A stretch of DNA of 64,000 bases from Thermoanaerobaculia bacterium (GTDB lineage: Bacteria > Acidobacteriota > Thermoanaerobaculia > UBA5066 > Gp7-AA6), in NCBI GenBank assembly GCA_036395755.1, contig DASWCZ010000023.1, positions 7,825-71,824 on the forward strand. Direction: 5' to 3'. Position numbers and translations under genes: made by a program. The notes under the pieces were generated by a model that worked only from the letters and a program-made list of their open reading frames with translations, did no database searches and was not told where the DNA came from. Of this stretch, positions 18,834 to 36,394 are shown in pieces; position 1 is the first letter of the stretch, and every line of letters begins with the position of its first letter.

Positions 18834-20723
18834 TCAGTTCGATTTGGTTGACGCGGTGCGGCCCGCGGCCGGTCCGGTGGATACGACTTTGAACATCATG
18901 AAGGGATACTCCGGCTTCTCCGGGATCCGGGTGAACCGCCACCGAAACGGGCGGGCGGCGGTCTTTTGCCCGGGAGCGAGCTGCGTCGAGCCGGCCGAGA
19001 GCGCGAAGCTCCAGCGGGCGCCCTCCGCCGCGCGCGTGTTGTCCGCGTTCTCGACCTTGAAGTCTTTCAGGTTCACCATCATGTTCTGGAGCTCCACCGT
19101 GAACGGACCCTCGACGGGGAGCGGAGACTTGTTCACGAGGTGCATCTCGCAGGAGAAGGAGTTCTCCTTCCACTCGAAGCCGCAGTTTTCCGCCACGAGC
19201 TTGACTTGCGTGCTGACGTCCCGCTCGCTCTCGGCCGCACTTCCGGGCGCGCTCCGGACCGAGAAGGGCGTCGTCGCGAGTTGCATCACGCCCGAGGACC
19301 CGTCTATCCACGCGGCATGGAAGAGGCCCCCTCCGTCACTGTCGAGCCCCTGCGTGTCGCCTCCGCCGGGAAACCGAGTCGAGATCATCAGCATGTTGAA
19401 GCCCTGCCCCTCGACGGACCGGCCCTCTTCCGTCTTGGGGTAGGCGCTCACCTCCGCGTGCGGCACCCAGTTTCCGGTCGCCATCGAGCAGGTCGGCTTC
19501 TCTCCCGGAGTAACGTTCGGTAGGAACGTCTCTCCTCCGTCGAGCGAGGCCGAGAAATACAGGTCGTAGCACTCGTTCTTGTGCGCGCGGCGGTCGTTCC
19601 ACACGACGCCCACGACGCCACGGTTGTTCACCGCGATCGTCGGGTTCGCGTGGTCGCCAGGGGTCGTGTTGTCGTTGACGGTGACAGGCTTCGACCACGT
19701 CTTTCCTTTGTCGGAGGAGTGGATGACGCGGACGTTGTAACGGTCGCCGGCATTGTCCACACCGACCGAATAGATCCGCCCCCGGAAAGGACCGTCGGAG
19801 AGGTCGATGACTGTGTTGCCGACGCCCTGCGCGTTCTCGGCGCGATATCGATCGCCGGAGACCCGAAAGGTCGTGATCTTCGGCGAAACCGAGTAGCTGT
19901 TCCCGCCGTCTCCGGAGATCGCGAGCCGCAACGCGGTCTCATAGTCGGGCAGTCGTTTGCTCGTGTCCTGCGGGTCCCACAGCGTCGACGGAGAGTCACG
20001 CTCGGCTATCGTGAAAAACGGAAGGATAACGGTGCCGTCCGGCGCCACGACCATGTTGACGAAGGAGCCCACGAGCTCGCCGGGCACGCTCGAGATGAGA
20101 CGCGGCTGATCGAATGTTTTCCCCTCGTCGTTCGAGAACGTGACCGCGAGGGCGGAGCGGGCTTTCCCGTCGAGCCCAACCATCTCCACGCTCGCGCCCG
20201 CATAGAGACGACCGGCGAACCTCCCCGTGCGGTCGAAGCCCATGTATTGCCGGTCGAAGCCCTCCGCTCCGGCGAGCAGTGTCGCGGCGCTCCACGTCTT
20301 CCCCTCGTCGCTCGACCGCGTGATCCAGAGCCCGTCGCGGTCGTTCGCGCCGTAGAACGCAGTGCCGGCGGCGTCGAAGTATGCGATCGCGTCCCAGCCG
20401 GTCGAGACCTTCGCCGCCGTTTCCGGCAGAACGACTCGCGTCCAGTCGAGGCCGCCGTCCTGGCTGATGTATCCCGAGGTGCCCATCCGACCCCGACTGA
20501 TCCGGCAGGAGACCGCGAGCATGTTACGAGGGTTCTTCGGATTCACGGCGAGGAACGACTCGCCGTGAGGATCCTCCGGAGCGTCGGCGGAGATCGTCAC
20601 CTTCGGGCCGATCGTGATCGGCTGCGCGCCGGCGGGCGACGACAGGAGTAACGCCGCCGCACCGATCGCCAGAGACACACCGACCCGGCGGTTCCCGTCC
20701 GCCAGCGGTCTCGCGCGCTTCAC
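18834..20723 (-). CDS. Secreted BNR/Asp-box repeat protein (sialidase-fold, type B); paralog 1
   Basis: It has multiple S-x-D-x-G-x-T-W boxes (SQDGGLDWT, SSDEGKTWS, SNDEGKTFD, SSDKGKTWS, ASLDGGETF). Signal peptide from the GTG at 20723. That GTG overlaps the upstream S9b stop in a GTGA overlap. No FRIP motif was seen. Confidence 0.75.
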   Translation of the reverse strand: MKRARPLADGNRRVGVSLAIGAAALLLSSPAGAQPITIGPKVTISADAPEDPHGESFLAVNPKNPRNMLAVSCRISRGRMGTSGYISQDGGLDWTRVVLPETAAKVSTGWDAIAYFDAAGTAFYGANDRDGLWITRSSDEGKTWSAATLLAGAEGFDRQYMGFDRTGRFAGRLYAGASVEMVGLDGKARSALAVTFSNDEGKTFDQPRLISSVPGELVGSFVNMVVAPDGTVILPFFTIAERDSPSTLWDPQDTSKRLPDYETALRLAISGDGGNSYSVSPKITTFRVSGDRYRAENAQGVGNTVIDLSDGPFRGRIYSVGVDNAGDRYNVRVIHSSDKGKTWSKPVTVNDNTTPGDHANPTIAVNNRGVVGVVWNDRRAHKNECYDLYFSASLDGGETFLPNVTPGEKPTCSMATGNWVPHAEVSAYPKTEEGRSVEGQGFNMLMISTRFPGGGDTQGLDSDGGGLFHAAWIDGSSGVMQLATTPFSVRSAPGSAAESERDVSTQVKLVAENCGFEWKENSFSCEMHLVNKSPLPVEGPFTVELQNMMVNLKDFKVENADNTRAAEGARWSFALSAGSTQLAPGQKTAARPFRWRFTRIPEKPEYPFMMFKVVSTGPAAGRTASTKSN

Positions 20724-23137
20724 TGGACCGCTCCCGGGCCGCCGGCCGTGGCGGGACGAGGCTTTGCCGCGGGCGCCATGTGCTTCTCGAGCCACCCGAG
20801 CATCCGCTGCGTCGCGTCCACGGCGTTCACCAGCGACCAGTCTCCCGGGACGTGCCCCTCCCCGTCGTACACGGCGAGCTCGGCCGTCCGATTCAGTCGC
20901 TTCAGGGCGTTGAACATCTTCTCGGCGCCCTCGACGGGGCACGCGTCGTCCTTCTTGCCGTGGATCAGTAGAAACGGCGTGTGGATCTTGTCCGCCTGGT
21001 AATAGGGAGAGTTGGCGAGATACCGCCGCAGGTCCGCCCACGGATGCGTTCCCATTCGCCCTTGCCCGCTCTCCGACCAGACGAAGTTGAAGGTGCTGCC
21101 TCCCGGGCCCATGCGCGCGTATTCGCCCGCGAGATCGTAGAGGCCGTCGAGCGCGATCGCGGCGCGAAAGAGGTTGCTCTGCGTGATCATCGCTGCGGTG
21201 CTGTAGCCGCCATAGGACTGCCCCATGATCGCAACGCGCTCGATGTCGGCATATCCGTGGTCGGCGGCGTGATAGACCTGCGCCAGAATCGCGTCACCCA
21301 TCTCCTGGATGGGATTGCCTCCCTTGCCTTGAGGGCTCAACGGAACGTCGACCAGGAGCACCGCATAGCCGCGCGTCGTGAAGACTTGCACCGGAATCGA
21401 ATTCGGAGCTCCGCCGCCGTACTCCTGGGCCGTGTTCGACATCCGGGATCCCGCGTAGAAATAGACGACCATCGGCAGGCGGTCTCCCGCTTTCTTTCCC
21501 GGCGGAAGGAAGATCGCCGATTGGACCGCCTGCAGCCGGCCATCGAACCCCGGAACGGGAGAGCTGAAGATCTCGATCGGTCCGACGGCGATGCCGTCGA
21601 GGCGCGGCTCGACGTGAGTCAGCTGCTGCTTCGACGCGAAGTGGCTGTCGAATCGATAGAAGTCCGGCGGGGTATCGAGCGATTCGTAGCGCGCCACGAT
21701 CCCGCCCCCCGAGGCGGCTCCCGCCGCGTCGAACCGACCCCGGCCCTTCCAGAGAGCCGCGACCGCGCCGCTGCGCGCTTCGATTTTCAGGATCGACCGA
21801 TCGCCGGTGGTCTCGTCGTTCTGAACGATCGCAAAACTTCCCGCTTCAGGCTGCCAGAGCGTGTCGCGATCCGCCCGAATGGGATCGCCGACGGAAGAGA
21901 ACGTCTTCGGCGCGGTTCCGTCGAGCGGAACGAGCGCCAGCGCCTTCGGCGGAACGGAGTAATAGGTCTTCTCGCCCGCCGCCTCCTGTCCCAGGAGAAT
22001 CGCCTTCCCATCCGCCGTCAGAAGAAGCGGTGCCTCTTCCAGGTCTCCGAGCGAGGAGCCGAGCTGGCGTGGCAGCTTTCCCGGAGCAGCTGCGTCGGCG
22101 AGCCAGAGCTTCTTGTCCTTCCGATACGCGATTCGAGCGGTGCCCGGAATCCAACGATACGTGTCCTCGAAGTACTCGTTGTCCGGAACCTGGATATCCG
22201 ACGCGAGAACGACCGGCTTCCCGCCGGAGACCGGCACGACCGCGAGATCGTAATAGGTCTCCGAAGCCGTCTGCCCCTTCATCTTGAAGACCGAGAGGTA
22301 GGAGAGCCGCTTGCCGTCGGGAGAGAGCCGCAGACAGCTTGGCCGCGGCGTTGCGTCCGCGGGGACGACCATCCGCATCTTGCCCGTGGCGATGTCGATC
22401 GCCGCGAGCGCCGCGTTGTTCTCCCGGAGGAAGTGGGCCATCATGGCGTCCGGCGTCGACGCGCCGCCTCCGGTCGAGGCAGGCTCTCCGCTCGTTTGAC
22501 GAACGGTGACCGTCGGCTTTAACAACGGCGCCCCCGGCGGAGGATTCGCCGGAGGTCCGGAGGCGGGTGTCGAGAAGTCGGCCTGATCGGGGGGCCGGAT
22601 CGGTACGAAGACCTCGCGCTCGTCCGCGCTCCACTGGGCCTCGTCCCCGGGCCAGTGTTTCGCCTTGATCGGCGCCTCGGAGAGCCGCCGTGGCTGTCCC
22701 TTCGCGACGTCGTAGACCCAGAGCTGTGGCATCCCGCCCGAGTCGGAATAGAAAGCCACCATGCGTCCGTCCGGGGAGGGGGACGGACGCCAGCAGTTCC
22801 CCTTCTCCGGACAGGCCGGACGGGCCTCGCCGCCTTTGGTCTCGACGACGAACACGCGAAGACCGACCGCCGCCTCGGGCGTACCTCCCGGCGTGAACCG
22901 AATCCCTTCGGCCAGCTCGCTCGTCGGGCTGCGCGTCGGCGGCGAGTAGATCTCGTAGGCGAGAATGGCGCCGTTTCGGTTGACGACGGGACGCTCCCAG
23001 CGACGAACCGTCTTCTTCGAGAAGGCCAGATCGAGCGGAAGAGGCCCGGTGGCGGCGCGCTCGGCAGCGCCGAGCATTTCGGTGGTCAGAAGAGAAGCCA
23101 GCGCAACCCAAAGCGCTCTCCGAATCCGGATCGCCAT
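20720..23137 (-). CDS. S9 family serine peptidase with a TolB-like propeller, secreted; paralog b
   Basis: Signal peptide MAIRIRRALWVALASLLTTEMLGAAERA. The catalytic motifs are GQSYGGYST, HGKKDDACP and GEGHVP. Confidence 0.8.
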   Translation of the reverse strand: MAIRIRRALWVALASLLTTEMLGAAERAATGPLPLDLAFSKKTVRRWERPVVNRNGAILAYEIYSPPTRSPTSELAEGIRFTPGGTPEAAVGLRVFVVETKGGEARPACPEKGNCWRPSPSPDGRMVAFYSDSGGMPQLWVYDVAKGQPRRLSEAPIKAKHWPGDEAQWSADEREVFVPIRPPDQADFSTPASGPPANPPPGAPLLKPTVTVRQTSGEPASTGGGASTPDAMMAHFLRENNAALAAIDIATGKMRMVVPADATPRPSCLRLSPDGKRLSYLSVFKMKGQTASETYYDLAVVPVSGGKPVVLASDIQVPDNEYFEDTYRWIPGTARIAYRKDKKLWLADAAAPGKLPRQLGSSLGDLEEAPLLLTADGKAILLGQEAAGEKTYYSVPPKALALVPLDGTAPKTFSSVGDPIRADRDTLWQPEAGSFAIVQNDETTGDRSILKIEARSGAVAALWKGRGRFDAAGAASGGGIVARYESLDTPPDFYRFDSHFASKQQLTHVEPRLDGIAVGPIEIFSSPVPGFDGRLQAVQSAIFLPPGKKAGDRLPMVVYFYAGSRMSNTAQEYGGGAPNSIPVQVFTTRGYAVLLVDVPLSPQGKGGNPIQEMGDAILAQVYHAADHGYADIERVAIMGQSYGGYSTAAMITQSNLFRAAIALDGLYDLAGEYARMGPGGSTFNFVWSESGQGRMGTHPWADLRRYLANSPYYQADKIHTPFLLIHGKKDDACPVEGAEKMFNALKRLNRTAELAVYDGEGHVPGDWSLVNAVDATQRMLGWLEKHMAPAAKPRPATAGGPGAVQ

Positions 23138-23150
23138 GATTGTTTCCTTC

Positions 23151-25034
23151 CTAACCTTTCGGCACGAAGCCGGTCAGCTTGATCCGCAGGCTCGGTGTCT
23201 TTCCAGGATCCACGAGCTTCAGTCTCATGACGACTGGCCCGGTCTGAGCGCCAGGCTCGAGCGCCTCGAGGTTTCCGAGCATGTCGCGGAATTCGATGAT
23301 CGCTCCTTCCAGCTTTTTCTGATTCGTCGCGTTGAGGACCGTCGGCGCGTTCTCTGCGTCCTCCTTCTTCTGCTCCTCGCTCTGATCCTCCTCGAATCCG
23401 AAACCGGTGACCTCGAGGCGGATCGGCGGATAGATCGGTTCCTTCGAGGTATTTTTCAACCGGATCGGATATTCGACCTCGCTCGCCAGGGCGTCATAGC
23501 GGGTGGGATCGAAGACGAACTCGACCCGATCGAGCAGGCTCACCTCGACCCGCTCCCGTTCCGGCTTCGGCGGTTCGGGCGGAGAAGTCGTGCTCGTCTT
23601 CCTGCTCTCCTTCTTCGGAGGCGTCTCGACCTGTACTCGGGCGGTATAGATCTGGAACGTGCCGCTGCGCGAGTCCGCCCAGAAAGGGTGAAACACTCCA
23701 TCTTTATCGGCTGTCAGCCCCATGTAGTCGCCGCCGGATGCCCACCGGGTTGCTGCCGAAACCGCGGTCAAGTACGTCGTTTGCTTGTACCGGTAGACCG
23801 TCGGCTTCAGGACCGAATTCCCCGGACCCTTCGGGTTCGACAGAGCCGAGGAGATCCGAACCGAGGGAAGAAAAGTTCGGCCGCCGTCGAGCGAGGCGGT
23901 GAAGTACTCGTGATACTGCTTCCCATCCGAGGAATCGCGGGTGTCGAACCAGGACACGGCGACGACGCCGTCCTTGTTGACCGCGACGACCGGCTGAAAC
24001 TGCCGGGAAGCTGCGGGAGCCCCGGCATCCAGGGGCGCCGGCGCAGACCAATGGCCGCCCTTGTCAGCCGAGTAGGAAAAGAGGATACGGGGATTCTTGC
24101 CGTGAAAGTCGGGCCACGCGACATACATTCGGTTCTTGTACTCCGTCGACTGGGCGTCGGCGGCGAGGGCTGGAACGCCGAAGACGTCGCGTTCGTCGAG
24201 ATTGAACTCGATCGTCGCGATCTTCTTCCGGGGCGAGAACGTGACCCCGCCATCGGAGGAGGTCACCAGCCAGACCGAGCTCGACACCTTCCCGTGCAGC
24301 TTGACCTTCTCGGGGAGAAACTCGAAATCGATGTAGGGCACCACGAGTGTTCCGTCGGAGAGCACCAGGAGATTCTGGTCGTTGATCCCGATCGTGCCGC
24401 CGCCGTTCGCCGCCTCCACCGGGCCGGTGAAAGTGCGCCCGTCGTCGTCCGAGCGAAAGACCCCGACGCGGTAGACCGGATAGTCGTGAAGAACCCCGAT
24501 GTAGACACGGCCTGCATACTTTCCGAACGTCCGATCGACCGCGATCTGCTCGTGATCGTATGAGTAGCCGAGGTCCGCGGGAGGCTTCCAGCTCCGACCT
24601 CCATCTTCCGATCGATAGACATAAAGGCCAGCCCGGTCCTGCCCCTTGTCGTCTTTCACGAAGGCGAGCGCGGTGAAGAGCGCCGTGCCGGACGGCGTGA
24701 TCCCGACCTGGGGATCGCCGCCTCCAAAGTCGATCTGCTCCCGGAACTCGGAGGCGTTCCAGGATGAGCCTCCGTCGTCGGAAGCATAGGTGCGGCAAGC
24801 CTGGCCGCCGCTGGGCCTGGCCTCCGTAATCGCCGCGCCCACGAGATTTTTGCCGTTCTTGGGATTCGCGGCCAGCATCAGCTCGACGTGGGGAAAGTTC
24901 CCGTCGCGGGAGACGAGGATGTTGGGACCGACGAGAATCTTCGGCTTAGCCGCTGAAGTCTCCGCGAGCGGAAATGCCATCGCCGACAAGGCGCCGGCGA
25001 CGCCGGCGAGGATTGCTGAGATTCGAGTGTTCAT
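23151..25034 (-). CDS. Secreted BNR/Asp-box repeat protein (type A) with a C-terminal domain of about 150 aa of unknown function; paralog 2
   Basis: Signal peptide MNTRISAILAGVAGALSAMA. It has the conserved KILVGPNILVSRDGNFPHVELM and Asp-boxes (SDDGGSSWN, SEDGGRSWK, SDDDGRTFT, SSDGGVTFS, SADKGGHWS, ASLDGGRTF). The C-terminal ...SLLDRVEFVFDPTRYD...PIYPPIRLEVTGFGF... is shared with paralog 5. Confidence 0.75.
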   Translation of the reverse strand: MNTRISAILAGVAGALSAMAFPLAETSAAKPKILVGPNILVSRDGNFPHVELMLAANPKNGKNLVGAAITEARPSGGQACRTYASDDGGSSWNASEFREQIDFGGGDPQVGITPSGTALFTALAFVKDDKGQDRAGLYVYRSEDGGRSWKPPADLGYSYDHEQIAVDRTFGKYAGRVYIGVLHDYPVYRVGVFRSDDDGRTFTGPVEAANGGGTIGINDQNLLVLSDGTLVVPYIDFEFLPEKVKLHGKVSSSVWLVTSSDGGVTFSPRKKIATIEFNLDERDVFGVPALAADAQSTEYKNRMYVAWPDFHGKNPRILFSYSADKGGHWSAPAPLDAGAPAASRQFQPVVAVNKDGVVAVSWFDTRDSSDGKQYHEYFTASLDGGRTFLPSVRISSALSNPKGPGNSVLKPTVYRYKQTTYLTAVSAATRWASGGDYMGLTADKDGVFHPFWADSRSGTFQIYTARVQVETPPKKESRKTSTTSPPEPPKPERERVEVSLLDRVEFVFDPTRYDALASEVEYPIRLKNTSKEPIYPPIRLEVTGFGFEEDQSEEQKKEDAENAPTVLNATNQKKLEGAIIEFRDMLGNLEALEPGAQTGPVVMRLKLVDPGKTPSLRIKLTGFVPKG

Positions 25035-25077: not shown

Positions 25078-26997
25078 TCACCTGGGTCCGTCCTTCGCCT
25101 GCTCGTTCCCGGTGCCTTTGCCCGCCTTGCCGAGCACTTTCGCTTCGATCGAGATGAGGCTCCCGAGCCTCTCCAGCCGGTCGACCTTGAAAGCGGCGAG
25201 CTCTTTCAGGCGGAGCCGGACGCGCTTGGGTTTCGTGGAGGCGCCGGGAGGGAGGCGCCCGCCGGGAACTTCTGCGGTGAAGTCCCAGACCGCTCCCGCG
25301 CCCGTCATCCGGTTCGAGGCGTCGAGGATCTCGGGGACCGCGCTGCCGGAGTCGAGCTCGAGGACCCGGAGCTCGAGGGGCGCCGAGATCTCGTCCTTCG
25401 AAGTGTTCGTGATGGTCAGATCGAGGGTGACGACGCCGGTCTTCGGGTCGTAGGCCGTATTGTCGAAGTCGAGCGTGACCTGCTGCGTCACGTCTGACAG
25501 CGACGCGAGCTCGGGCGCGCCGTTGACGAACGCCGACCCTTCCACTCGGACCGCGGCGCTCCAGAGCTGCGGAACTCCGGTCCGGTCGTCCACCCAGAGC
25601 GGGTGGAACACGCCGTCGCCGTCCGCGGCAATCCCGCCCGTGTCGGCGGCTGCCAGGTAGTCGATCCACTGCGGGCCAATCTCCATGCGGATGTTTCCGC
25701 CGCGCGCCTTTGGCCGGCGGTGCCCGCCTCCGGTGCTGTGCGCCATCATCGGGAGCGCCTGCCCCCGGTGACTGGTGGAAAGGGCCTCGGAGACGCGCAC
25801 GCTCGGCGTGAAGGTCTCCCCTCCGTCGAGAGACGCCGCGAAACGCGCGCGCCACCCTCCGACGTTGTCGAAGCTCTCGCGCCGGTCGTACCAGGAGACG
25901 CCGACCACCCCCGCCCGATTCACGGCGACGGCCGGGATCATGTGGTCCCTGCCGCGATCCCGCTCCGCGGGCGAGCGATCATCAGAAATGGTTGCTGCCT
26001 TAGACCAGGTCTTCCCCTTGTCGGAGGAGAAGGAAAAGAGGATCTCGCACCGTCCGGAGCGCCGGTCCGTCCAGACGAGATACAGCCGGTCCTTGAATGG
26101 ACCCGTCGTCGCGTCGACCGCGAGGTACGGCATCCCGGGGGTCCAGCCTCGGCACATCGTCCACTCGCTGACGACGATGCCCTTGGCGAAATGGTCTCCG
26201 CCGTCCTCGGAACGGACGACCTTGACCGAGCCGGAGGGCCGGTCCTTCTCGACGTGCGCCAGGTTCTTCCGATCGTTCAACTCGAAGAACGGCGCGACGT
26301 ACGTGCCGTCCGACAGGACGGCGCCATTTCCCGTGCCGAGGGACATCTTGTCTCCGTCCGGAAGCAGCTTCCGCGGCGGGCCGAACGTCTGTCCGCCGTC
26401 GTCGGATCGGAAGAGCGTGAAGACGACGCGCTCGTCGCCGTCGACGGTGGGATCCGCGACCGCGTTTCCGTGCAGGTAGACGCGTCCGCGATGCGGGCCG
26501 GTCGTTCGGTCCACCGCCAGGTATTCGCGGTCGATGAACGGAAGGTGGACCGGCTCCGACCACGTCCGGCCGCCGTCGGCCGAGCGGTAGACCAGCGTCT
26601 CGTGATCCGCGTCGGACTCGTAGTGGAGCGGGAGCGTCGAGAAGTACGCCGACCCGTCGGGCGCAAAGCCGACGTCCGGGTCCCCCACGAAACGCGTCAG
26701 CTTCACCTCCAGAGTGGGCGCCCAGCTCTGGCCGGCGTCGCTCGACGCGTAGACGATCGTATGGCGGGAAGCGTCGCGCCCATCGAAGATCATTGCGCAG
26801 GCAAGGAGCCGTCGCGGGTCCGTCGGGCTCGCCGCCATGCCGACCTCGTGGTGCAGTCGTTCGGGGTTCCCACTGCTCACGCGCACGTTCTGTTCGACGC
26901 GGATCAAAGGGATCTCGGCAGCGGCCGACCTCGAGGACGCGGCGGAGGTGAGGAGCGCCGCGACGAGTCGCAGGAACGAGAGGCGCCGTCGGCTCAC
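25078..26997 (-). CDS. Secreted BNR/Asp-box repeat protein (type B); paralog 3
   Basis: Asp-boxes SSDAGQSWA, SADGGRTWS, SDDGGQTFG, SEDGGDHF, SSDKGKTWS and ASLDGGETF are present. I prefer the GTG at 26997 (VSRRRLSFLRLVAALLTSAASS) with GGAGAAGAA upstream. The tracked ATG is at 27057. Confidence 0.7.
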   Translation of the reverse strand: MSRRRLSFLRLVAALLTSAASSRSAAAEIPLIRVEQNVRVSSGNPERLHHEVGMAASPTDPRRLLACAMIFDGRDASRHTIVYASSDAGQSWAPTLEVKLTRFVGDPDVGFAPDGSAYFSTLPLHYESDADHETLVYRSADGGRTWSEPVHLPFIDREYLAVDRTTGPHRGRVYLHGNAVADPTVDGDERVVFTLFRSDDGGQTFGPPRKLLPDGDKMSLGTGNGAVLSDGTYVAPFFELNDRKNLAHVEKDRPSGSVKVVRSEDGGDHFAKGIVVSEWTMCRGWTPGMPYLAVDATTGPFKDRLYLVWTDRRSGRCEILFSFSSDKGKTWSKAATISDDRSPAERDRGRDHMIPAVAVNRAGVVGVSWYDRRESFDNVGGWRARFAASLDGGETFTPSVRVSEALSTSHRGQALPMMAHSTGGGHRRPKARGGNIRMEIGPQWIDYLAAADTGGIAADGDGVFHPLWVDDRTGVPQLWSAAVRVEGSAFVNGAPELASLSDVTQQVTLDFDNTAYDPKTGVVTLDLTITNTSKDEISAPLELRVLELDSGSAVPEILDASNRMTGAGAVWDFTAEVPGGRLPPGASTKPKRVRLRLKELAAFKVDRLERLGSLISIEAKVLGKAGKGTGNEQAKDGPR

Positions 26998-27084
26998 TTC
27001 TTCTCCACGCTTCCGGAGGAGAGAGATCGAAGCACCTGTCAACGCGAACGTCTCCATGCGAATGAGCCTCCCGTCACCGATCCG

Positions 27085-28446
27085 TCACTTCGTCGCCGAA
27101 GCGGCGTTTTGCGCCGTTGCCTTTCGCTCCACTTTCACGACCGACTGACGGAGCCGGTACATTCCGTCGCGGCTGTCGGACCACAGCACGTGGAAGCTCC
27201 CGTCCGGCCGCGCCGCGAGCCCGGTGTAGTCGCCGCCCGCCGGCCATCGCGCTTTCGCCAGCCCGTTCCGCGGTGCGTCGGCGCAGCTCGGGGCGCTCGA
27301 CACCTTCACGTCCGGGAGGAAGGTCTCGCCGCCGTCGAGTGACGCCGCGAAGTAGAGCTCGACGCACTGGTAGATGTCCTTGAACTTCAGCTTCTCGTGG
27401 CGCGCGTCGTACCAGGTGATGCCTACGACGCCGTCCTTGTTCACAGCGATCGAAGGCGTACGGACGTATGGTCGGCGTCCGGACGAGACGTTGACTCGGA
27501 CCGGCTTCGACCAGGTCTCCCCCCGGTCGACCGAGCGTTGGAGCAGAATCTCCTCGAATCGCTGCGTGTTGCAGAGCCAATAGAGGCGATCGCGCGTCGG
27601 ACCGCCGGACGAGTCGACGGCGAGCGACGGAAACCCGCGCCCGCACGCATCGGAGATCATCATGGGCGCCGCAAACGTCTTTCCCTTGTTGCGCGAGACC
27701 GCCATCCAGGAGCGTCCCGGCTCGAGCCAGATTGGTCCCTCGGGGCCCGGCCGCTGGTAGTCGGCGAACGACGCGAGGACCTCGGTGTCGGAGAGGACGA
27801 CCAAGGTCATCGCGTTGCTGTCGAGGTTGCTCGGAAAAAAGCGCGTCGGCTCGGCAAAGCTCCGGCCGCCGTCGTCCGAGCGCGCCACGAAGACGCTCGT
27901 CCGGTGCTTCCCGCTCGCGGGCTCGTTCGTATCCTGACTCGCCAGCAGGTACACGGGACCCCTCGAGTCGGCGAAGAGCGTCTCGTGATCGAGGTTCCCG
28001 TCGAACGCGAGCGATTTGCTCCACGTCCGCCCGCCGTCTCCGGAGCGGTAGACGAGCAGCGCGCCCGCTCCGAGCACCGACAGAAGAGCGCTGCCGTCGG
28101 ATGCGAAGGCGGTCCACACGTCGGCGCAGTCCGAGAGACCGAGATTCCGGTGACTCCAGGTCGCGCCCGTGTCGAAGGAGACGAAGGAGGCGCAATCAGT
28201 TTGGGAGATATCCGGTTTCGTGAGGACGATCGAGGCGGCGAGCAGGTGCTTTCCGTCGGCCGGATCCACTGCGAGGTGCGGCTCGATGAGCGGTGCGGTG
28301 TCGTATTCGGCCGCGACGGGCCGGTCCTCACCGACCTCGATTGTGCCGGAGGCGGACGGGGAGGAAGCGAGGACCGGGGCCGACGCGCCGAGCAGAAATA
28401 AGACAGCGGCGCGGCGCGCGAGACCGAGGGGAACTCCGCGGCTCAC
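27085..28446 (-). CDS. Secreted BNR/Asp-box repeat protein (type B); paralog 4
   Basis: Asp-boxes SFDTGATWS, SGDGGRTWS, SDDGGRSFA, SRNKGKTFA, SVDRGETWS and ASLDGGETF are present. The signal peptide VSRGVPLGLARRAAVLFLLGASAPVLASS starts at the GTG at 28446. The tracked 583-aa ORF has a spurious extension. The exact start is uncertain. Confidence 0.65.
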   Translation of the reverse strand: MSRGVPLGLARRAAVLFLLGASAPVLASSPSASGTIEVGEDRPVAAEYDTAPLIEPHLAVDPADGKHLLAASIVLTKPDISQTDCASFVSFDTGATWSHRNLGLSDCADVWTAFASDGSALLSVLGAGALLVYRSGDGGRTWSKSLAFDGNLDHETLFADSRGPVYLLASQDTNEPASGKHRTSVFVARSDDGGRSFAEPTRFFPSNLDSNAMTLVVLSDTEVLASFADYQRPGPEGPIWLEPGRSWMAVSRNKGKTFAAPMMISDACGRGFPSLAVDSSGGPTRDRLYWLCNTQRFEEILLQRSVDRGETWSKPVRVNVSSGRRPYVRTPSIAVNKDGVVGITWYDARHEKLKFKDIYQCVELYFAASLDGGETFLPDVKVSSAPSCADAPRNGLAKARWPAGGDYTGLAARPDGSFHVLWSDSRDGMYRLRQSVVKVERKATAQNAASATK

Positions 28447-28475
28447 ACACGACGGAGGGGACCCGCAGATGATCT

Positions 28476-30848
28476 TCAAGGCGAAGCCGCGTTGCGAGCG
28501 CTCTCGTCGGCCGCGGGCCGCTTCCCGCCCTTCAAGTGTCGGTCGAACCAGGCGAGCACTCGATTCAGTACGTCGAGCTGATTCGCGAAGCTCCACGTGC
28601 CCTCCCAATGCCCTTCGCCTTCGTACCGGACATAGCTCACCGGTTTTCCAAGGCGCCGCAGCCCGGTGAAGACCTCGTCGGCGAGGAATGCGGGTACCGC
28701 GTCGTCCTTGTCCCCATGAATGATCAAGAGAGGCGTCTCGACGCGGTTGAGGTAAAAGATGGGCGAGTTCTCCAGGTAACGCTCGCGAAACTCCCAGGGG
28801 CTTCCACCCATCCTTCCCTGGCCGCTCTCGGACCACTCGAGCCCGTAGTTCGTTCCGTCGGGGGCGAGCTGCCCGTACGCGCCGATCAGGTCGCCCATCC
28901 CGGCGCGCATCACGGCCGCCCGGAAACGTCGAGACTGGACGATCAGGGAGAGGGTGCTGTAACCGCCGTAGCTGTGTCCGGTGATCCCGATGCGCGCGGG
29001 GTCGGCCACACCGGACTCGACTGCCTTGTTGATGCCGGGCATGACGCTCTTCATGAGATCGACCATGGGGCTTCCCACGTTCAGCTTCGAGTCGGCGAGC
29101 AGGAGCGCGTATCCGCGAGTGGCGAAGAGCTGCAGGTTCTCGATCGCGGCGCTCGCGTATCCGAAGCGGTTCAGATCGTTGGATATCGAGCTTCCTCCAT
29201 AGACCTTGACGATGAGGGGATAACGCTTACCGGCTCTGTAGCCAGACGGATAGACGAGCGCGCCCCTCTGGATCTCCCCGTCGATGCTGCGCCACTCGAT
29301 GACCTCCGCTCGCCCGAAAGATCGGTTTGCGAGCGAAGGGGCGACCTCGCTGACCTTTCGAGCCTGCGCGAAGTCCCCGCTGCGCAGGAAGAGATCCGGG
29401 GGGTGGACTGCGTCCTCCGCAACGTAGGCGACGCTCGCCCCGTCGGAAGAAATCGTGGGCTCCGTGCCGTATCCGCCGTAACGTTTGTCCTCTTCGAAAA
29501 TCGGAGAGACGGCGCCCGACTGAAGGTCGATTCTCGCGAATCCCACGCGCTTGGTGCTCGGATTCGAGCTCATGACCAGCGCAAACCGGCCCCGGACGGG
29601 CGAAAAAAGGCGTTGCTGCCGCGGAGCGATGATTTCGAGCTCGTGTGCCTTCGACGTTGCAAACGCTGCAGCCCCCGACCCGTCCGCCGGCGCACGCCAG
29701 AGGACACCCTCGCGGATGAAGAAAACGTTCTGCCCCGACTCGTCCCAGGTCGGCGGATCCACCTCGAAGGCCAGCTTCTCGGTCCGCGGGTTCTGGGCGA
29801 TCCGACGAGACGGTCCGCCGGCCGCCGAGACGACGTGGACCTCGTCCTCCGCGGAGGGTCCGCCGGTTCGCCAGGCAATGCGATCGCCGGCGGGCGCCCA
29901 ACTGAAGGAATTCGCGAGAAGCGTCAGGCGCAAATTCGATGCGACGACCCGAGGCTCACCACCGGAAAGGTCCTGCACGACGAGGTCGTAAAGGTATTGA
30001 CCCGTTCCGGGTTTCTCCGATCGAGTCAGTAACGTATAGGCGACCCGCCGATGGTCCGCGGACACCGCGTAGTGTCCGATGCGGGAGCCTTTCGCGAGTC
30101 GGCGAACCTTTCCGGTGTCCACGTCGATCAAACCGAGATCCCGCCGCCAGAGATCGAGGTTGATCTGGTCGGTGCTCGGAACCGCCTCGGGAGTCGAGGG
30201 ATCGAACTCGAAGACCTTGGCCGTTACGCCGGAATTCGACGCGCCCGCTGTTCCCTTGCCCTCGATTCGGGCGGCGTAGCCCTCCCGTCCGAGGTCTTCC
30301 GAAAAGAGAGAAACGAGGACCGAGCGCTCGTCGCCGGCCCACCCGATTCCAGCAAAACCTTCCCGAACGTCCGCGGCGCCGATCTGGCGCAGCTTTCCGG
30401 TGGCACGATCCCATATCCAGAGGCGGGCCGGCCCGATCCGGGGACCGCCGCTGCGGTCCGACAGGAACGCGAGACCGCGGCCATCCGGAGACCAGCTCGG
30501 TGCCCAGCTGTTCCCGACTCCCCCTGTGACGTTGCGACGCTGCCCGGTCTCGAGATCACTCACCCAGATGTCGGAGGCCACGCCGTACCAGGCGACTCCG
30601 GCGCGAAGAAGCTCCTTGTCGTCCACAGCCTCGCGCCGGCGGCTGTTGTCCGTGACGACGTACGCGAGCAGCCGCTTGTCCGGTGAAAATGCGGGAGGCG
30701 AGTAAGGCGCCAGGGTGGGCGCATGCAGCACCTCTTCCACCGAAAGCGGCCCGGCGGGAGAATTCGTTTGACGGGGATGAGCGGCGAGCGAACAAATGGC
30801 GAGCAGCAGAGGGAGCGAGGCGGCCCGGAGAAATCGAAGAGATTTCAT
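28476..30848 (-). CDS. S9 family serine peptidase with a TolB-like propeller, secreted; paralog c
   Basis: Signal peptide MKSLRFLRAASLPLLLAICSLAA. The catalytic motifs are GHSYGGYST, HGDKDDAVP and GEGHWEG. The ATG at 30848 shares one nucleotide with the stop of the upstream 43-aa BNR remnant (TGATG). Confidence 0.8.
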   Translation of the reverse strand: MKSLRFLRAASLPLLLAICSLAAHPRQTNSPAGPLSVEEVLHAPTLAPYSPPAFSPDKRLLAYVVTDNSRRREAVDDKELLRAGVAWYGVASDIWVSDLETGQRRNVTGGVGNSWAPSWSPDGRGLAFLSDRSGGPRIGPARLWIWDRATGKLRQIGAADVREGFAGIGWAGDERSVLVSLFSEDLGREGYAARIEGKGTAGASNSGVTAKVFEFDPSTPEAVPSTDQINLDLWRRDLGLIDVDTGKVRRLAKGSRIGHYAVSADHRRVAYTLLTRSEKPGTGQYLYDLVVQDLSGGEPRVVASNLRLTLLANSFSWAPAGDRIAWRTGGPSAEDEVHVVSAAGGPSRRIAQNPRTEKLAFEVDPPTWDESGQNVFFIREGVLWRAPADGSGAAAFATSKAHELEIIAPRQQRLFSPVRGRFALVMSSNPSTKRVGFARIDLQSGAVSPIFEEDKRYGGYGTEPTISSDGASVAYVAEDAVHPPDLFLRSGDFAQARKVSEVAPSLANRSFGRAEVIEWRSIDGEIQRGALVYPSGYRAGKRYPLIVKVYGGSSISNDLNRFGYASAAIENLQLFATRGYALLLADSKLNVGSPMVDLMKSVMPGINKAVESGVADPARIGITGHSYGGYSTLSLIVQSRRFRAAVMRAGMGDLIGAYGQLAPDGTNYGLEWSESGQGRMGGSPWEFRERYLENSPIFYLNRVETPLLIIHGDKDDAVPAFLADEVFTGLRRLGKPVSYVRYEGEGHWEGTWSFANQLDVLNRVLAWFDRHLKGGKRPAADESARNAASP

Positions 30849-30979
30849 CAAATGAGTTCGTCGCCGTCGCGGGTGACCAGGATGTTGGGGCCCGCCTCGA
30901 TACGCGGAGACGCCGGTCCGGGCCCGGAGCCGAGCACACCGGCGGCCGCGAGACCGATCGTGAGTGAAATCCTCCTCAT
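30848..30979 (-). pseudogene. 43-aa remnant of a type-A BNR gene (signal peptide plus first 18 residues), translationally coupled between the S8 and S9c genes
   Basis: The ATG at 30979 overlaps the S8 stop (ATGA). It encodes MRRISLTIGLAAAGVLGSGPGPASPRIEAGPNILVTRDGDELI*. The matching N-termini are BNR2 (MNTRISAILAGVAGAL...KILVGPNILVSRDGNFPHV) and BNR5 (RVVVGPNILVSRDGDVPHV). Confidence 0.55.
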
Positions 30980-33900
30980 CGCGCAGCGGCGGCTGGCGGC
31001 GGCACCTCGAACCAGACCTCCGCAGCGCCGAGCGGAATCGGCTCCTTGTCTCCCTGACCGAACCGGCCGGAGAGCTTCGTCACGTCCTTGCTCGTTGCGA
31101 CGATCCGCGCCGCGAGGTGTCGCGGAGACTCTGGAAGGTGCGCGGCCCACGCGTTCGCCCGCGCCTGCCAGCGGGTCGCCGGAGCCCGCTCCTCCGGGAG
31201 GTCCGCGGCCGCGATCGCGCCGAAGCCCGGGTGGGAGAAGAAGTCGAAGTACTCGTACTCGACGGGCCCGTCGGGCGCCGAGAACGCGTCCACGACGATC
31301 ACCCAGCGGCCCGCCTTCGGGCTCGACACCTCCGCCTCCGCGCCGGCACCCACTTCGGCCGACTTGACGGCGGGAGCGCAGAGCGGCGGTGGGCGCATCG
31401 GCGACTTCTTTCCCTTCTCGAGCTCGCCCGCGGGCGCTTCGGGCGGCTTCTCAGGCTCCGTGCAGTCGAGCACGTAGAGGTCGAGGTCGGCTCTCGAGTC
31501 CTTCGGTGGCTGGACGCGGGCGAGGAGCGACGTCGTCCCCTTCGGCACGACGACCTCGTACATATGCTGCTCCCCCTGATGGATCGTCGCCCGCGAGCGG
31601 ATCGCGCTGCCGAGGTCGACCGACGCCGCGGCGGCCGCAGTCTTGCCGAGACGGTTCTCGAGAGTCAGCGTGAGCGGCTGGGACCGGTCGGCGGCGAGCG
31701 CGACCGGAGCGGGCGCCACGGCGAGCCCGACGGACGCGGCGGTCGCGGTGACGGTCACGGGGGTCGGCTTGAACGGATCCGGCGCTTCCGGGTCGAAGTT
31801 GCGCATGGCGCTGCTCGCCACATTGATCTCCCAGACGCCCGGCTGCGGATTCGCGAACGCGCACCGCGCTGGGGTCTGCCCCTGCAGGTCGAACGGGCAC
31901 GGATAGAACCCGTCCCGGTCGGGGCCGATGAGCGTGGGATAGAAGCCGGGCGCCGAAACTGCGAAGCGGAGCGCGGCGGTGCCGGGTGGTACGTCGACGA
32001 AGACGCCGACGTCGCTCGGTGTCGGCGGAACGACCTCGGCCTTGATCGAGTATCCGTTCTCCGCCGTCAGCCGGTGAGACACAACGATCGCGGCGAGGAC
32101 GCGGTGGACGTGCCCCGGGATCGACGGATGGTCGATCGAGAGGGTGGCGCTGTGCGCGCCCTCTTTCCTGGCGGTGATCTTCACCGGGACGGAAACTGGC
32201 GTGTCGAGCGGCAGCGTGACGGAGTTCGGGCTGCTGAAGACGCCCTCCTCGCCCTGCCAGGTCAAACGAAAGCTCATCGGCTCGGAGGGGCCGGACCGAC
32301 GGGTCAACGTGATCGTCCGCTCGCCTGTCTGCCCCGCGATCCACCCTTCGCGTTCGTAGAGGCCCACGCCCTCGTTCGGCGTCCGGAGCAGGGGCGACAG
32401 CTTCGTCTTCACCGGGCCCCGGCTTTCGATCGAGACGGGAGAGACCGCCTGCAGCTTCTGGAGCAGCTCGTACGCGGCACCCACCTGGATGAGCCCGTTC
32501 CCCTGCTCGTGGGCGGCGAGGCGCGCGATGTGCCGCGCGCTGCCCGTGATCGCGGCCTTCAGCTTCGCCGCGTCGTACTGGACACCGCTCTGCTTCGCGG
32601 CGCTGACGACGAGGGCGGTCGCTCCCGCGGCCATGGGCGTGGCGGTCGAGGTCCCGCCGTCGACCGAGTAGCCGGGCGGGAGCTTGTACAGGCCCTTGCG
32701 CGACTCACCCATCCGATACCCTGGATCGGTCGACATCTGGCCGGTCGGCGCGAGCAGGTCCGGCTTCAGAGCGCCGGCGCCGCTCGGACCGTGCGACAGG
32801 GCTCCCCAGTGCAGGTTGTCGTCGTTCTCCGGCATGAAGCCCCAGTTCACGCGGTAGCTCTCTTTGCTCTGATACCCGCCGACACTCACCGCCCCCGGCG
32901 CGAGGCCGTCCTCCGCGACGAACGCGAACGCCGGAGAGTTGTCTCCCGGCACGAACAGCAGCTTCTGGTAGCGGTCGATCAACCGCTGCGCGATCACGCT
33001 GATCGGGTGCGTGCCATCGGAGAGCAGGTAGGAGATCGACGCGATCGCGACGGATTGCTCGAGCACGACGAGATCGACCAGCGGGTGCTTGAAAGCGGCG
33101 ATCAGTCCTTCAATCAGGCCGTGGGCGTTGCTGACCCCGTAGTACATCGAGACAATCCGTGCTCCCGGCGCGACCCCCTGGAGCCGTCCCTTCGGCTCGC
33201 GGTTCCCGACGACGGAGCCCATGATGATTGTGGCGTGCTGGTAGACGCCGGCGTTGATCGAGACGAAATTGTTCTTCCGATCGGTCTGGACCGTGAAGCC
33301 GATCGACTCGCGCACGGGCGTGCTCGGGTCGTCCTTGCCGAAGACGCCGACGTCGGACCTCACGATGTAGTCCGTCATCGCCTTCTCGTCGGTGAAGTCG
33401 AGGTTACGGTTCGTGTCGACCCAGACGTCGTTCGTCTTCTCGTCCCACACGACTCCGAAGAGCCCGTCGTCGCCTTTCGGGTTTCCGTCACGGTCGACGT
33501 CCTGGTCGATGTAGGCCGCATTCGAGTCCATGTTGAAGCGTCGCTCCGAGAATAGGCCGACGCGGAACGAGCCGGAGCGCGGGGCGCGGAACGTCTTTCC
33601 GCCGAACTTGATCTTGCCGCCTCTCGAAGTCACCGTCGCCTTCATGTCGACCCACTGGGGGTTGATCTCCGCGTCGTCCCGCGGATCCGTGACGTTCAGA
33701 AAGTCGGCGATCTTCGGGATCGGCTTGCCGTCGAGGGCGTAGGCCGTTTGGAATTCCGGGAGGAGCAGGTCGAGATTCCCGTCCAGGAGTGCGATCGTGA
33801 CGCCGCGCCCGTCCCACGTCGGATGCTTCGCGCGAAACTCCTCCGCCCCCAGATCCTTGATCGGCGAATAGGGTTCCTGAAGGGGATAGTCGGTCAGCCG

Positions 33901-34347
33901 CGGCGGCCACTTCGCCGGGGTCTGCGGAGGGGCGCTTTCAGCTAGTGGCTGCAGCGCCGGAGCTCCGGGCCCCGCGCCCGCGCCGAGGCGAAACGGCCAG
34001 GCGTCGTCATAGTCCATCGCCGCCGACTCGACCGCGTCGAGCTCGGTGAGCTCGGTCGCGCTGTCGATCGGGAGGCGGACCCGGAGGTATCCGACCTCGT
34101 CTTCCCGGTAGCGCACGTCTCCTCCGAGTCGCGCGGCCTCTCGGGCGACCTCGGAGGCGCCGGCTGGCTTCGCCGCGATCAACAGGGAAACCTCCTTGCG
34201 CCCCTGGGCACGCGCGATCGCGAGCGACTGCCGACTGTCTTTGAACAAGCGCGGGCGGGGGCGGAGAGGATTGCCGGACTGCGGCGCGGCGACGAGTGCG
34301 GAAGAGAGGAGGAGAACCAGACTCGCGGCGATCGACCGACGTGTCAT
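30976..34347 (-). CDS. Large secreted S8 family serine peptidase (1123 aa, tripeptidyl-peptidase II-like architecture)
   Basis: Signal peptide MTRRSIAASLVLLLSSALVAA. The motifs are an Asp region GRGVTIALLDGNLD, a His region HATIIMGSVVGN and a Ser region GGTSTATPMAAGATALV. Long insertions and a C-terminal extension resemble the TPPII class. Confidence 0.7.
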   Translation of the reverse strand: MTRRSIAASLVLLLSSALVAAPQSGNPLRPRPRLFKDSRQSLAIARAQGRKEVSLLIAAKPAGASEVAREAARLGGDVRYREDEVGYLRVRLPIDSATELTELDAVESAAMDYDDAWPFRLGAGAGPGAPALQPLAESAPPQTPAKWPPRLTDYPLQEPYSPIKDLGAEEFRAKHPTWDGRGVTIALLDGNLDLLLPEFQTAYALDGKPIPKIADFLNVTDPRDDAEINPQWVDMKATVTSRGGKIKFGGKTFRAPRSGSFRVGLFSERRFNMDSNAAYIDQDVDRDGNPKGDDGLFGVVWDEKTNDVWVDTNRNLDFTDEKAMTDYIVRSDVGVFGKDDPSTPVRESIGFTVQTDRKNNFVSINAGVYQHATIIMGSVVGNREPKGRLQGVAPGARIVSMYYGVSNAHGLIEGLIAAFKHPLVDLVVLEQSVAIASISYLLSDGTHPISVIAQRLIDRYQKLLFVPGDNSPAFAFVAEDGLAPGAVSVGGYQSKESYRVNWGFMPENDDNLHWGALSHGPSGAGALKPDLLAPTGQMSTDPGYRMGESRKGLYKLPPGYSVDGGTSTATPMAAGATALVVSAAKQSGVQYDAAKLKAAITGSARHIARLAAHEQGNGLIQVGAAYELLQKLQAVSPVSIESRGPVKTKLSPLLRTPNEGVGLYEREGWIAGQTGERTITLTRRSGPSEPMSFRLTWQGEEGVFSSPNSVTLPLDTPVSVPVKITARKEGAHSATLSIDHPSIPGHVHRVLAAIVVSHRLTAENGYSIKAEVVPPTPSDVGVFVDVPPGTAALRFAVSAPGFYPTLIGPDRDGFYPCPFDLQGQTPARCAFANPQPGVWEINVASSAMRNFDPEAPDPFKPTPVTVTATAASVGLAVAPAPVALAADRSQPLTLTLENRLGKTAAAAASVDLGSAIRSRATIHQGEQHMYEVVVPKGTTSLLARVQPPKDSRADLDLYVLDCTEPEKPPEAPAGELEKGKKSPMRPPPLCAPAVKSAEVGAGAEAEVSSPKAGRWVIVVDAFSAPDGPVEYEYFDFFSHPGFGAIAAADLPEERAPATRWQARANAWAAHLPESPRHLAARIVATSKDVTKLSGRFGQGDKEPIPLGAAEVWFEVPPPAAAAR

Positions 34348-34481
34348 GGGTGCTCCTGGTCGGGCGGCGGGGGCGGGGCGTCGCGCGAGACCGCCGCGAA
34401 TCCCGATCCGACCAGCCCGACGAGGAACCTCGGAAACATCGGACCTCCCCTGGCTTGCGCGGTCGCGCAGAGCTCGCTCCG

Positions 34482-36374
34482 CTACGGCGTCGAAGCGAGC
34501 ATTCCGACCGCTTTGAGCGTGAGACTCGGAGTCTTGTCCGGATCGACCATCTGGAAGTGCAAAACGACGGGATTCGTCTGCGCTCCCGGCTCGAGAGCTT
34601 CGGAGCCGGCGATCGCTCCCCCGAATTCGAAGACCGCTCCTTCCCTCGGCTTCCGGTTCGCGGAGTTCACTGCGGAGGGAGCGTTCGCCGCGTTGCGTTT
34701 CTTGTCGTCTTCGCTCTCGTACTTGGGAAACCCGAAGCCGACGACCTCGACCCGGATCGGCGGATAGATCGGCTTGTCCGAGACGTTCTTCAGGCGAACC
34801 GGGATCTCGACCTGTTTCTTCACGAGATCGGTTCGCGTGGGATCGAAGAGAAACTCGACCTTTCCGAGGAGCGAGGACTCGACGCGCGGCGCTTCGGGCG
34901 GTTTCGCTGCGGGCGGACTCTGCGCCGCGGCTTTCTCCTCCTTCTTCGGAGGCAGCTCGACGCGGACGCTCGCCGTGTAGATCTGGAACGTGCCGCTGCG
35001 CGAGTCCGCCCAGAATGGATGGAACCCCCCGTCCCGATCGGCGGCGAGCCCCATATAGTCTCCGCCGGACTCCCAGCGGCTCGTCGCCGAGAGCATCGAC
35101 AGATAGAACCCGTCCGGATCCGACCAGACGACCGGCGAGATGCGTCCGTTGCCGGCGCCCTTCCGCCGCGACGGTTCGGATGAGACGCGCACGGTCGGGA
35201 GGAAGGTCTCACCGCCGTCGGTCGAAGCGGCGAAATACTGGTGATAGGCGTTCCCGTCGGAGGAGTTGCGCGTGTCGTACCAGGTGACGGCCACCAATCC
35301 GTCGCCGTTGACCGCGACCGCGGGTTGGAACTGGTGGGTCGACGCCGGCACTTTCGCGTCGATCGGCTTCGGAGCCGACCAGGTCTTGCCCCGGTCGGTC
35401 GAGCGCGAGAAGAGAATCCGGTAGGGACCCTTCTGGTAGTCCTCCCAGACCACGTACACGCGGTCGGGATGCGACTTGGACGCTCCCGACGTCGCGAACT
35501 TCGGGAATCCCGCGGTCGGCGGCGGCGAGCCGTAGTCCACGTGGTAGTTCTGCGCGACCACTTTGGTCGGCTTCGAGAAAGTTACTCCGCCGTCGGAGGA
35601 GCTCACGATCCAGAGGTTGCTGGTCGTGTTCGTCCCGTCCTTCGGCCGCTTGTCCGGGAGGAACTGAAAGTCTCCGTACGGAACGATGAGGGTGCCATCG
35701 GACAGCACGAGGGGCGTGACGTCGTTGATTCCGATCTTCCCGCCGCCGTTGGCGGCCTCGACCGGTCCCGTCCAGCTTCGTCCGTCGTCGTCGGATCGAA
35801 AGACACCGACCCGATAGACCGGGTAGTCGTAGAGGGCACCCACGTAGATTCGGCCCGCGAAACGGCCGGCAGTCTGATCCACGACGATCTGCTCGTGGTC
35901 CCAGGACGGGCGGCAGGGGATCTCGGTCGAAGGGAGCCAGCTCTTCCCGGCGTCCTCCGATCGCCAGACGTGCATGCTCGAGCAGTCCTTCCCCTGCTCA
36001 CTCCTGTTCATCGTCAGCGCGATGAACAATGCGGTGCCGCGCGCCGTGAAAGCGACCTGCGGATCGGCTCCGCCGAACTCGACTTGCTCCGGAAACTCCG
36101 AGGCCTTCCAGGTCATGCCGCCGTCCGTCGAGGAATACGTCCGGCACGCCATCCCGCCGTTCGGCCGCGTGGCTGTGATCGCGCCTCCAATCAGGTGCTT
36201 CCCGCTGCGCGGGCTCGTCGCGACCATGAGCTCGACGTGCGGCACGTCCCCATCGCGGGAGACGAGAATGTTCGGGCCGACGACCACGCGGGGAGCCGTC
36301 GAATCTCCCGCCGCCGCCGCGAGCGGCGCGGCGGCGGAGAGCAAGAGCACCGGCGCGAGGAACCGCGTCGTCAT
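34482..36374 (-). CDS. Secreted BNR/Asp-box repeat protein (type A) with a C-terminal unknown domain; paralog 5
   Basis: Signal peptide MTTRFLAPVLLLSAAAPLAAAAG. It has RVVVGPNILVSRDGDVPHVELM and Asp-boxes (STDGGMTWK, SEDAGKSWL, SDDDGRSWT, SSDGGVTFS, STDRGKTWS, ASTDGGETF). The C-terminal ...SLLGKVEFLFDPTRTD...PIYPPIRVEVVGFGF... is near-collinear with paralog 2. Confidence 0.75.
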   Translation of the reverse strand: MTTRFLAPVLLLSAAAPLAAAAGDSTAPRVVVGPNILVSRDGDVPHVELMVATSPRSGKHLIGGAITATRPNGGMACRTYSSTDGGMTWKASEFPEQVEFGGADPQVAFTARGTALFIALTMNRSEQGKDCSSMHVWRSEDAGKSWLPSTEIPCRPSWDHEQIVVDQTAGRFAGRIYVGALYDYPVYRVGVFRSDDDGRSWTGPVEAANGGGKIGINDVTPLVLSDGTLIVPYGDFQFLPDKRPKDGTNTTSNLWIVSSSDGGVTFSKPTKVVAQNYHVDYGSPPPTAGFPKFATSGASKSHPDRVYVVWEDYQKGPYRILFSRSTDRGKTWSAPKPIDAKVPASTHQFQPAVAVNGDGLVAVTWYDTRNSSDGNAYHQYFAASTDGGETFLPTVRVSSEPSRRKGAGNGRISPVVWSDPDGFYLSMLSATSRWESGGDYMGLAADRDGGFHPFWADSRSGTFQIYTASVRVELPPKKEEKAAAQSPPAAKPPEAPRVESSLLGKVEFLFDPTRTDLVKKQVEIPVRLKNVSDKPIYPPIRVEVVGFGFPKYESEDDKKRNAANAPSAVNSANRKPREGAVFEFGGAIAGSEALEPGAQTNPVVLHFQMVDPDKTPSLTLKAVGMLASTP

Positions 36375-36394
36375 GCGAGTCCTTCTCTTTCCGC

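Follow-up and report, generated by a model that had tools for sequence, protein, structure and literature searches.

A 43-codon stub of a deleted BNR-family gene in an acidobacterial peptidase operon and its possible use as a ribosome relay

For the leader peptides of the IncFII (tap/repA) and IncI/IncB (repY/repZ) plasmids, translation of a short open reading frame (ORF) is required for the downstream gene; these leaders have a dedicated regulatory role that involves antisense RNAs and pseudoknots. Here we describe a minus-strand ORF of 43 codons that is wedged between the genes for a subtilase (S8) and a prolyl-oligopeptidase-family protein (S9c) in a 64,000-nt stretch of contig DASWCZ010000023.1 from a Thermoanaerobaculia bacterium. 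This whole stretch is referred to as the window. The ORF is almost certainly the 5′ stub of a deleted gene of the BNR/sialidase family, to which we have given the name BNRx, and it has likely been kept as a ribosome relay from S8 to S9c. Termination-reinitiation at ATGA and TGATG overlaps, the two types found at the ends of the stub, has been shown experimentally in both archaea and bacteria (Huber et al. 2019, PMC6728339).

The 43-codon ORF and its intact counterpart

The ORF, consisting of 43 codons and a stop at 30848-30979 on the minus strand, was recognized from the sequence and from gene calls, and its translation is MRRISLTIGLAAAGVLGSGPGPASPRIEAGPNILVTRDGDELI. The ATG (30979-30977) lies over the TGA of S8 (30978-30976), giving ATGA at 30976-30979, and the TGA (30850-30848) has base 30848 in common with the ATG of S9c (30848-30846), giving TGATG at 30846-30850. 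Both overlaps agree with those described in the original prediction for this DNA. The TTG at 30851 is an alternative start for S9c, in which case the overlap would be TTGA. Of the six independent contigs shown, five have the 43-aa ORF annotated as a gene; the exact peptide was found on five contigs in the protein collection, and the identical S9c protein is encoded on eight contigs (NCBI, ENA, JGI, and Logan).

The peptide had been read as the signal peptide plus the first conserved block of a BNR protein, and similarity searches bear this out. In a six-frame search of the window with the stub peptide, the three best non-self matches were all BNR N-termini, namely those of BNR5 (34482-36374; E = 1e-6), a fifth BNR gene (about 18960-20690; 4.5e-5), and BNR2 (23151-25034; 8.5e-5). 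None of 2000 residue shuffles of the stub peptide reached the Smith-Waterman scores, the z values being 11.6 for BNR5, 9.2 for the fifth BNR gene, 8.9 for BNR2, and 27.7 for the intact ortholog in locus L007. BNR2 and BNR5 had been named as the genes for comparison; the similarity to them is indeed above chance (motif identity 53-67%), but the source gene is neither of these. It is BNRx, a distinct paralog about 42% identical to both, of which no other copy is present in the window. No Pfam match was obtained at E <= 1 for the 43-aa product or for the 31-aa and 71-aa products of the related remnants described below; for the intact BNRx, the match to BNR_2 has an E value of 2.6e-11.

The proposal that the ORF is what remains of a BNR gene after the loss of its body is borne out by synteny. 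A complete BNRx of 614 aa is found between S8 and S9c in five independent assemblies (L007, L013, L024, L026, and L027), beginning in each at the same ATGA on the S8 stop, and the flanking genes at these loci are 97-99% identical to those of the window. In a scan of one genome per species, L007 (QHVV01000070.1) shared 98-99% identity with the window across S9c and the sequence that follows it. The BNRx-homologous segment of the stub (30860-30979, minus strand) encodes the signal peptide and the GPNILV(S/T)RDGD block and corresponds to L007 1485-1610, which are BNRx codons 1-42; the two are identical at 104 of 120 nt, with one in-frame indel of 6 nt, and at 83-86% of the amino acids. By blastn, window 31600-30860 aligns with L007 864-1610 and window 30786-27001 with L007 3472-7257. 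Homology to BNRx stops right after stub codon 40 (GAC), and at least 1719 nt have been lost (L007 1611-3329). Full-length relatives of BNRx, at roughly 40-72% identity, gave 881 matches in Acidobacteriota at E <= 1e-30; with hundreds of such relatives, BNRx must be an old gene that was lost in the window lineage and not a recent insertion. As expected of a gene remnant, the stub possesses above-chance homology, an intact syntenic ortholog and, as discussed below, relaxed constraint.

The final codons of the stub, 41-43 (ELI), and its stop are encoded by GAACTCATTTGA (30848-30859, minus strand), a sequence directly 5′ of the S9c start that has no counterpart in L007. BNRx and eight orthologs terminate in GFVAK(K/S)G..K, unlike the ELI at which the stub ends. 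Since ELI is not the native C-terminus of BNRx, the stop of the stub was recruited from the sequence just 5′ of S9c. A simple in-frame deletion that retained the native BNRx stop is ruled out by the same comparison.

An allele combining intact BNRx with an S9c carrying its native leader was not found, and the metagenome scan gave only deletion alleles. In all five contigs with intact BNRx, the first 21 codons of S9c are replaced by a copy of the 5′ end of BNR4. This copy is 152 nt long (L007 3326-3477, and also in L013, L024, L026, and L027) and has its source at window 28295-28446; the copy is joined through 6 nt of microhomology, and its start codon forms a GTGA overlap with the stop of BNRx. 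It represents a natural signal-peptide swap on S9c in the five BNRx-retaining assemblies. The S9c signal peptide of the window is of the native type, because S9c orthologs at 67-70% identity (L008-L012) have comparable ones of their own. S8 and BNR genes are absent near S9c in these distant orthologs, which are uninformative on synteny. In L024, a 4-nt deletion in BNRx (about 10040-10052) results in ORFs of 227 and 386 aa, themselves overlapping by ATGA, and may be an assembly error or mean that BNRx was inactivated independently here.

Deletion alleles and the second stub

Further alleles were found, in the same kind of soils, by searching metagenome contigs with a degenerate pattern for the 5′ end of S9c and by a protein search with the stub. 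In L017, S8 is followed by a 43-codon stub with seven amino-acid differences from that of the window and by S9c. S8 is missing from L016 and L018-L021, where the order is BNR5, an ORF of 71 codons, and S9c. The 71-codon ORF is composed of the leader of a second BNR paralog, here named BNRy, with a strong Shine-Dalgarno (SD) site, fused in frame to stub codons 9-43. Five sequence variants of it exist, each 71 codons long and each ending on TGATG at the S9c start. The S8-less allele is located at L016 2252-2464 (minus strand) and L018 8001-8216, and was also seen in L019, L020, and L021; the sample series that yielded it (JGI Ga01373xx, ENA ERZ272531xx-ERZ272532xx) also contains the window-type allele.

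The TGATG at the stub stop and S9c start is invariant in all deletion alleles examined. It is kept in the window, L017, L016, L018, and L020 amid many nearby substitutions, the alleles differing at 2-10 of 35 codons. On one contig of the window type, L003 (JGI 3300012350), the GGGCCCC run within the stub is longer by one C, at about position 5960 (~window 30885-30891). Four states are present in one population: the intact gene, the stub, an S8-less stub-to-stub fusion, and a frameshifted stub.

S8 in the window is flanked by two BNR stubs. The second, a BNRy remnant of 31 codons (34344-34439, minus strand), reads MFPRFLVGLVGSGFAAVSRDAPPPPPDQEHP followed by a stop that overlaps the S8 ATG (ATGA). 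The BNRy remnants in L016, L018, and L017 are longer and carry KIEVGPNMLVSRDGNFPHVEL, which is BNR2-like; from these longer versions the 31-codon ORF can be recognized as the 5′ end of a BNR2-like gene. The remnant upstream of S8 in L017 ends with KIEVGPNMLVSRDGNFPHVELVLAANPKNAKNMVSGADQGHP and a stop over the S8 ATG. Two in-frame blocks, of 66 and 54 nt, distinguish the 31-codon form of the window from the long form. L007-type genomes carry the same 31-codon form, and all forms of the BNRy remnant end on the ATGA of S8.

The BNRx breakpoint is common to all deletion alleles, which indicates that the BNRx deletion is older than the divergence of these alleles and that S8 was lost later. The stub block of the window is only 83% identical to that of L007-type genomes, compared to 97-99% for the flanks, and its divergence exceeds the neutral divergence of the neighbours (dS 0.04-0.07). 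Three combinations were observed: short BNRy with intact BNRx (L007 type), short BNRy with deleted BNRx (window), and long BNRy with deleted BNRx (L017). Together with an ancestor that presumably had the long BNRy remnant and an intact BNRx, these three can be accounted for only if an identical event happened more than once or if recombination took place within S8. The simplest view is that related strains have exchanged structural alleles by homologous recombination.

S8 itself contains a patch of 300 nt (window about 31700-32000, compared with L023) at 81% identity, while the rest of the gene is at 97-100%; this is possibly a recombination tract. The gene content of the BNR array also differs between strains. 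In L013 (5422-8804) BNR3 is missing, and BNR2 is found about 150 nt after BNR4.

Start sites, coupling, and competing explanations

The genes of the minus-strand cluster are arranged in the order TonB-dependent receptor (TBDR), BNR5, S8, the short ORF, S9c, BNR4, BNR3, BNR2, S9a, the fifth BNR gene, another S9 gene, and a sulfatase gene. S8 (30976-34347; 1123 aa) matches Peptidase_S8 (PF00082), and S9c (28476-30848; 790 aa), which has its native signal peptide, matches Peptidase_S9 (PF00326). Five paralogs match BNR_2 or BNR in Pfam; among these BNR5, identified by BNR_2 and tblastn, is an intact type-A paralog that lies upstream of the S8 block. The remaining genes include TBDR (36395-39199), BNR4 (27085-28479; called as 464 aa), BNR3 (25078-27057), and S9a (20720-23137). 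In two L007-type metagenome-assembled genomes TBDR is called as two ORFs, not as one of 934 aa (L022 3021-5855 and L023 3010-5855, in pieces of 394 + 523 aa and 628 + 189 aa), which may be due to a frameshift, a pseudogene, or an assembly error.

Eleven candidate starts of the operon were scanned for the energy of the anti-SD duplex. Good pairing, from -6.6 to -12.6 kcal/mol, was found at seven of them. Six of these have no stop overlap: the 31-codon ORF (-12.6), TBDR (-11.7), BNR3 and BNR2 (-10.7 each), S9a (-8.1), and BNR5 (-6.8). The seventh, S8 (-6.6), overlaps the stop of the 31-codon ORF (ATGA) and has its own AGGAG SD site. There is no such pairing for the 43-codon stub (+1.2 kcal/mol), S9c (-2.2), or BNR4 (-1.7 at the TTG at 28479), and the proposed starts of these three each overlap the preceding stop: that of the stub lies on the S8 stop (ATGA), that of S9c on the stub stop (TGATG, or TTGA from the TTG at 30851), and that of BNR4 on the S9c stop (TTGA). 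The alternative GTG start of BNR4 at 28446 gives -3.7 kcal/mol and has no stop overlap. As in coupled gene pairs, the ATGA and TGATG overlaps are co-directional, and the downstream starts have neither an SD nor a promoter-like site. Unpaired, overlapping starts of this kind are the signature of a putative termination-reinitiation chain.

BNRx once lay between S8 and S9c in a TonB-receptor/BNR/peptidase operon that belongs to a soil population of Thermoanaerobaculia-type Acidobacteriota. The loss of at least 1.7 kb took away everything after codon 40 and joined the stub, which still has the original ATGA on the S8 stop, to the 12 nt preceding the S9c start; the frame reads three further codons and halts at the TGA that overlaps the S9c ATG. 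The stub begins at the authentic start of BNRx, and ribosomes that come off S8 should therefore still enter it; those ending S8 would reinitiate on the stub as they formerly did on BNRx, translate its codons as far as the TGATG, and there terminate and start anew on S9c. Since S9c has no SD site of its own, the stub may be taken to act as a ribosome relay in a coupled chain running from S8 through the stub and S9c to BNR4. What would matter is the translation of the stub and its stopping point, not the peptide. On balance, a BNRx deletion stub that serves as a ribosome relay is the joint explanation that we favour for this locus.

A regulatory RNA, attenuator, or internal promoter is unsupported as an explanation of the region. 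The RNA fold of 30790-31000 is no more stable than that of shuffled sequences (z = +1.04), neither terminator-like nor promoter-like sites were found in the region, and 28000-37000 contains no Rfam match. A programmed frameshift from the stub into S9c was likewise rejected, there being no X XXY YYZ slippery heptamer, as read by eye, around CUCAUUUGAUG.

The main competitor of the relay is a neutral scar, that is, a decaying fragment without a role, next to an S9c that initiates independently, with the overlap and the open frame arising by accident from where the deletion happened to end and from the high G+C content. We consider this possible, though somewhat doubtful. The stub has a dN of 0.03-0.16 and an omega of 0.24-0.81 (from small counts), as against a dN of 0.005-0.023 and an omega of 0.10-0.30 for S8, S9c, and BNR5, and its substitutions strike the GPNILVSRDG motif (L34P, P31L, and D38G). 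The stub peptide is not conserved and its constraint is relaxed, which fits a neutral scar, as does the lack of any special RNA structure.

Several further points weigh against the relay. Given the breakpoints, the observed frame had a prior chance of 1 in 3, as a neutral scar would allow, and a G+C content of 66%, that of the window, keeps frames open by chance. The run of in-frame changes (about 4-5 events, roughly p 0.004-0.04) is a reconstruction in which the events are maybe not independent, and the ~25 allele substitutions (a rough reckoning) are too few to show selection against stops. In L003 the +1 frame would run about 290 nt into S9c, and S9c is intact there, again in keeping with a neutral scar; the extra C may be an assembly error or a tolerated rare variant. 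In E. coli, reinitiation often drops upon removal of the SD site (PMC6728339), so that an SD-less overlap is no guarantee of efficient coupling. The relay, which we still regard as likely, is read from sequence and allele comparison in an uncultured organism.

A neutral scar, in turn, accords poorly with an S9c that has no SD site, where the non-overlapping proposed starts in the operon have one. The frame and the overlapping stop have come through several separate changes in the length of the two stubs, among them the fusion that accompanied the loss of S8, and TGATG has stayed invariant in spite of the codon differences between the alleles. With the exception of the single L003 contig, the frame and the overlaps survive every rearrangement seen. 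As to a dependence of S9c translation on the stub, the frame-preserving alleles are only suggestive.

It is very improbable that the stub was retained for its sequence, as a functional small secreted or membrane peptide. Gene calls for it exist in several assemblies, and it has kept a plausible Sec-type n- and h-region; however, its dN is 3-10 times that of its neighbours, the three substitutions named above fall in its sole conserved BNR motif, and it has no Pfam matches. Only two clusters in the whole protein collection match the peptide, both from this population, and its first eight codons are dispensable in the 71-codon fusion.

Even less credible is an insertion of the 3.4-kb S8 into the body of a single BNR gene, or a replacement of that body by S8, with BNR 5′ pieces remaining to both sides. 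The original prediction had left a choice between replacement by S8 and deletion next to it, and only the deletion beside S8 stands. BNR 5′ remnants do flank S8 in the window (34344-34439 and 30848-30979), and an S8-less allele of the L016 type exists. In the relatives, however, S8 is followed by an intact BNRx with the same ATGA, so that S8 must have been present before BNRx lost its body; an adjacency of S8 and BNR is also seen in the distant relative L015 (S8 identity 62%). The two flanking remnants, moreover, are both 5′ ends and come from two paralogs, rather than representing a 5′ and a 3′ half of the same gene. The S8-less allele holds stub codons 9-43 with the same 3′ breakpoint and thus derives from an S8-containing deletion allele. 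Finally, an assembly or sequencing artefact, in the form of a collapsed or chimeric join of paralogous BNR 5′ ends at a paralog-rich locus for which all data are metagenome assemblies, can be dismissed for practical purposes, as the S8-stub-S9c junction is identical to the base in NCBI, ENA, JGI, and Logan assemblies from different samples and the breakpoint has no long repeat at which an assembler might switch.

If the stub is a ribosome relay, a wider reading can be put forward tentatively: in SD-less coupled operons a middle gene would be lost only via deletions that leave an in-frame stub with both overlaps. The permitted series, on the same tentative footing, may comprise the reduction of BNRx to the 43-codon stub, that of BNRy to stubs of 31 to 71 codons, and the loss of S8 by stub-to-stub fusion. 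Were this true, such stubs would be selected ribosome relays and not junk, and coupling would limit, as a general rule for gene loss, which deletions an operon tolerates; the tiny "hypothetical proteins" called between overlapping genes would also be explained. For annotation, the 43-aa and 31-aa "hypothetical proteins" (e.g., HEX9303298.1) should be labelled as BNR-gene remnants.

Comparison with known systems

Of the BNR/Asp-box sialidase-like beta-propellers (Pfam PF13088, BNR_2), the stub has retained the signal peptide and the first conserved strand (GPNILVSRDG). Unlike these proteins, it has no BNR/Asp-box repeat, no beta-propeller blade, and no match in Pfam, and it cannot have the fold or the activity of the family.

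The stub resembles other bacterial pseudogene remnants in being a 5′ fragment at the syntenic place of an intact ortholog, with relaxed amino-acid constraint and with further decay in neighbouring strains (the L003 frameshift and the 4-nt deletion in L024). It is unlike them in that both overlaps and the frame have been kept through later rearrangements, which is unexpected if the remnant is purely neutral.

With the IncFII and IncI/IncB leaders the stub would share the character of a short ORF whose product is irrelevant and which terminates at, or adjacent to, the start of the coupled gene. In contrast to these leaders, the stub region lacks a regulatory RNA structure, a terminator, and an Rfam family, and does not qualify as a regulatory leader or attenuator; its origin as a remnant is, moreover, documented.

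The closest likeness is to the overlapping stop/start pairs (PMC6728339), which are co-directional, share 4 nt (ATGA) or 1 nt (TGATG), have downstream starts without independent ribosome-binding sites, and form a chain over several genes of an operon. The present locus differs in that the middle ORF is a 43-codon stub and in that coupling is deduced from sequence features and alleles. In itself the stub is an ordinary pseudogene remnant, and its value lies in an unusually well-documented natural allele series. Both components, a pseudogene stub and translational coupling, are of known kinds; what is unusual is that the allele series makes the question of coupling versus gene loss testable.

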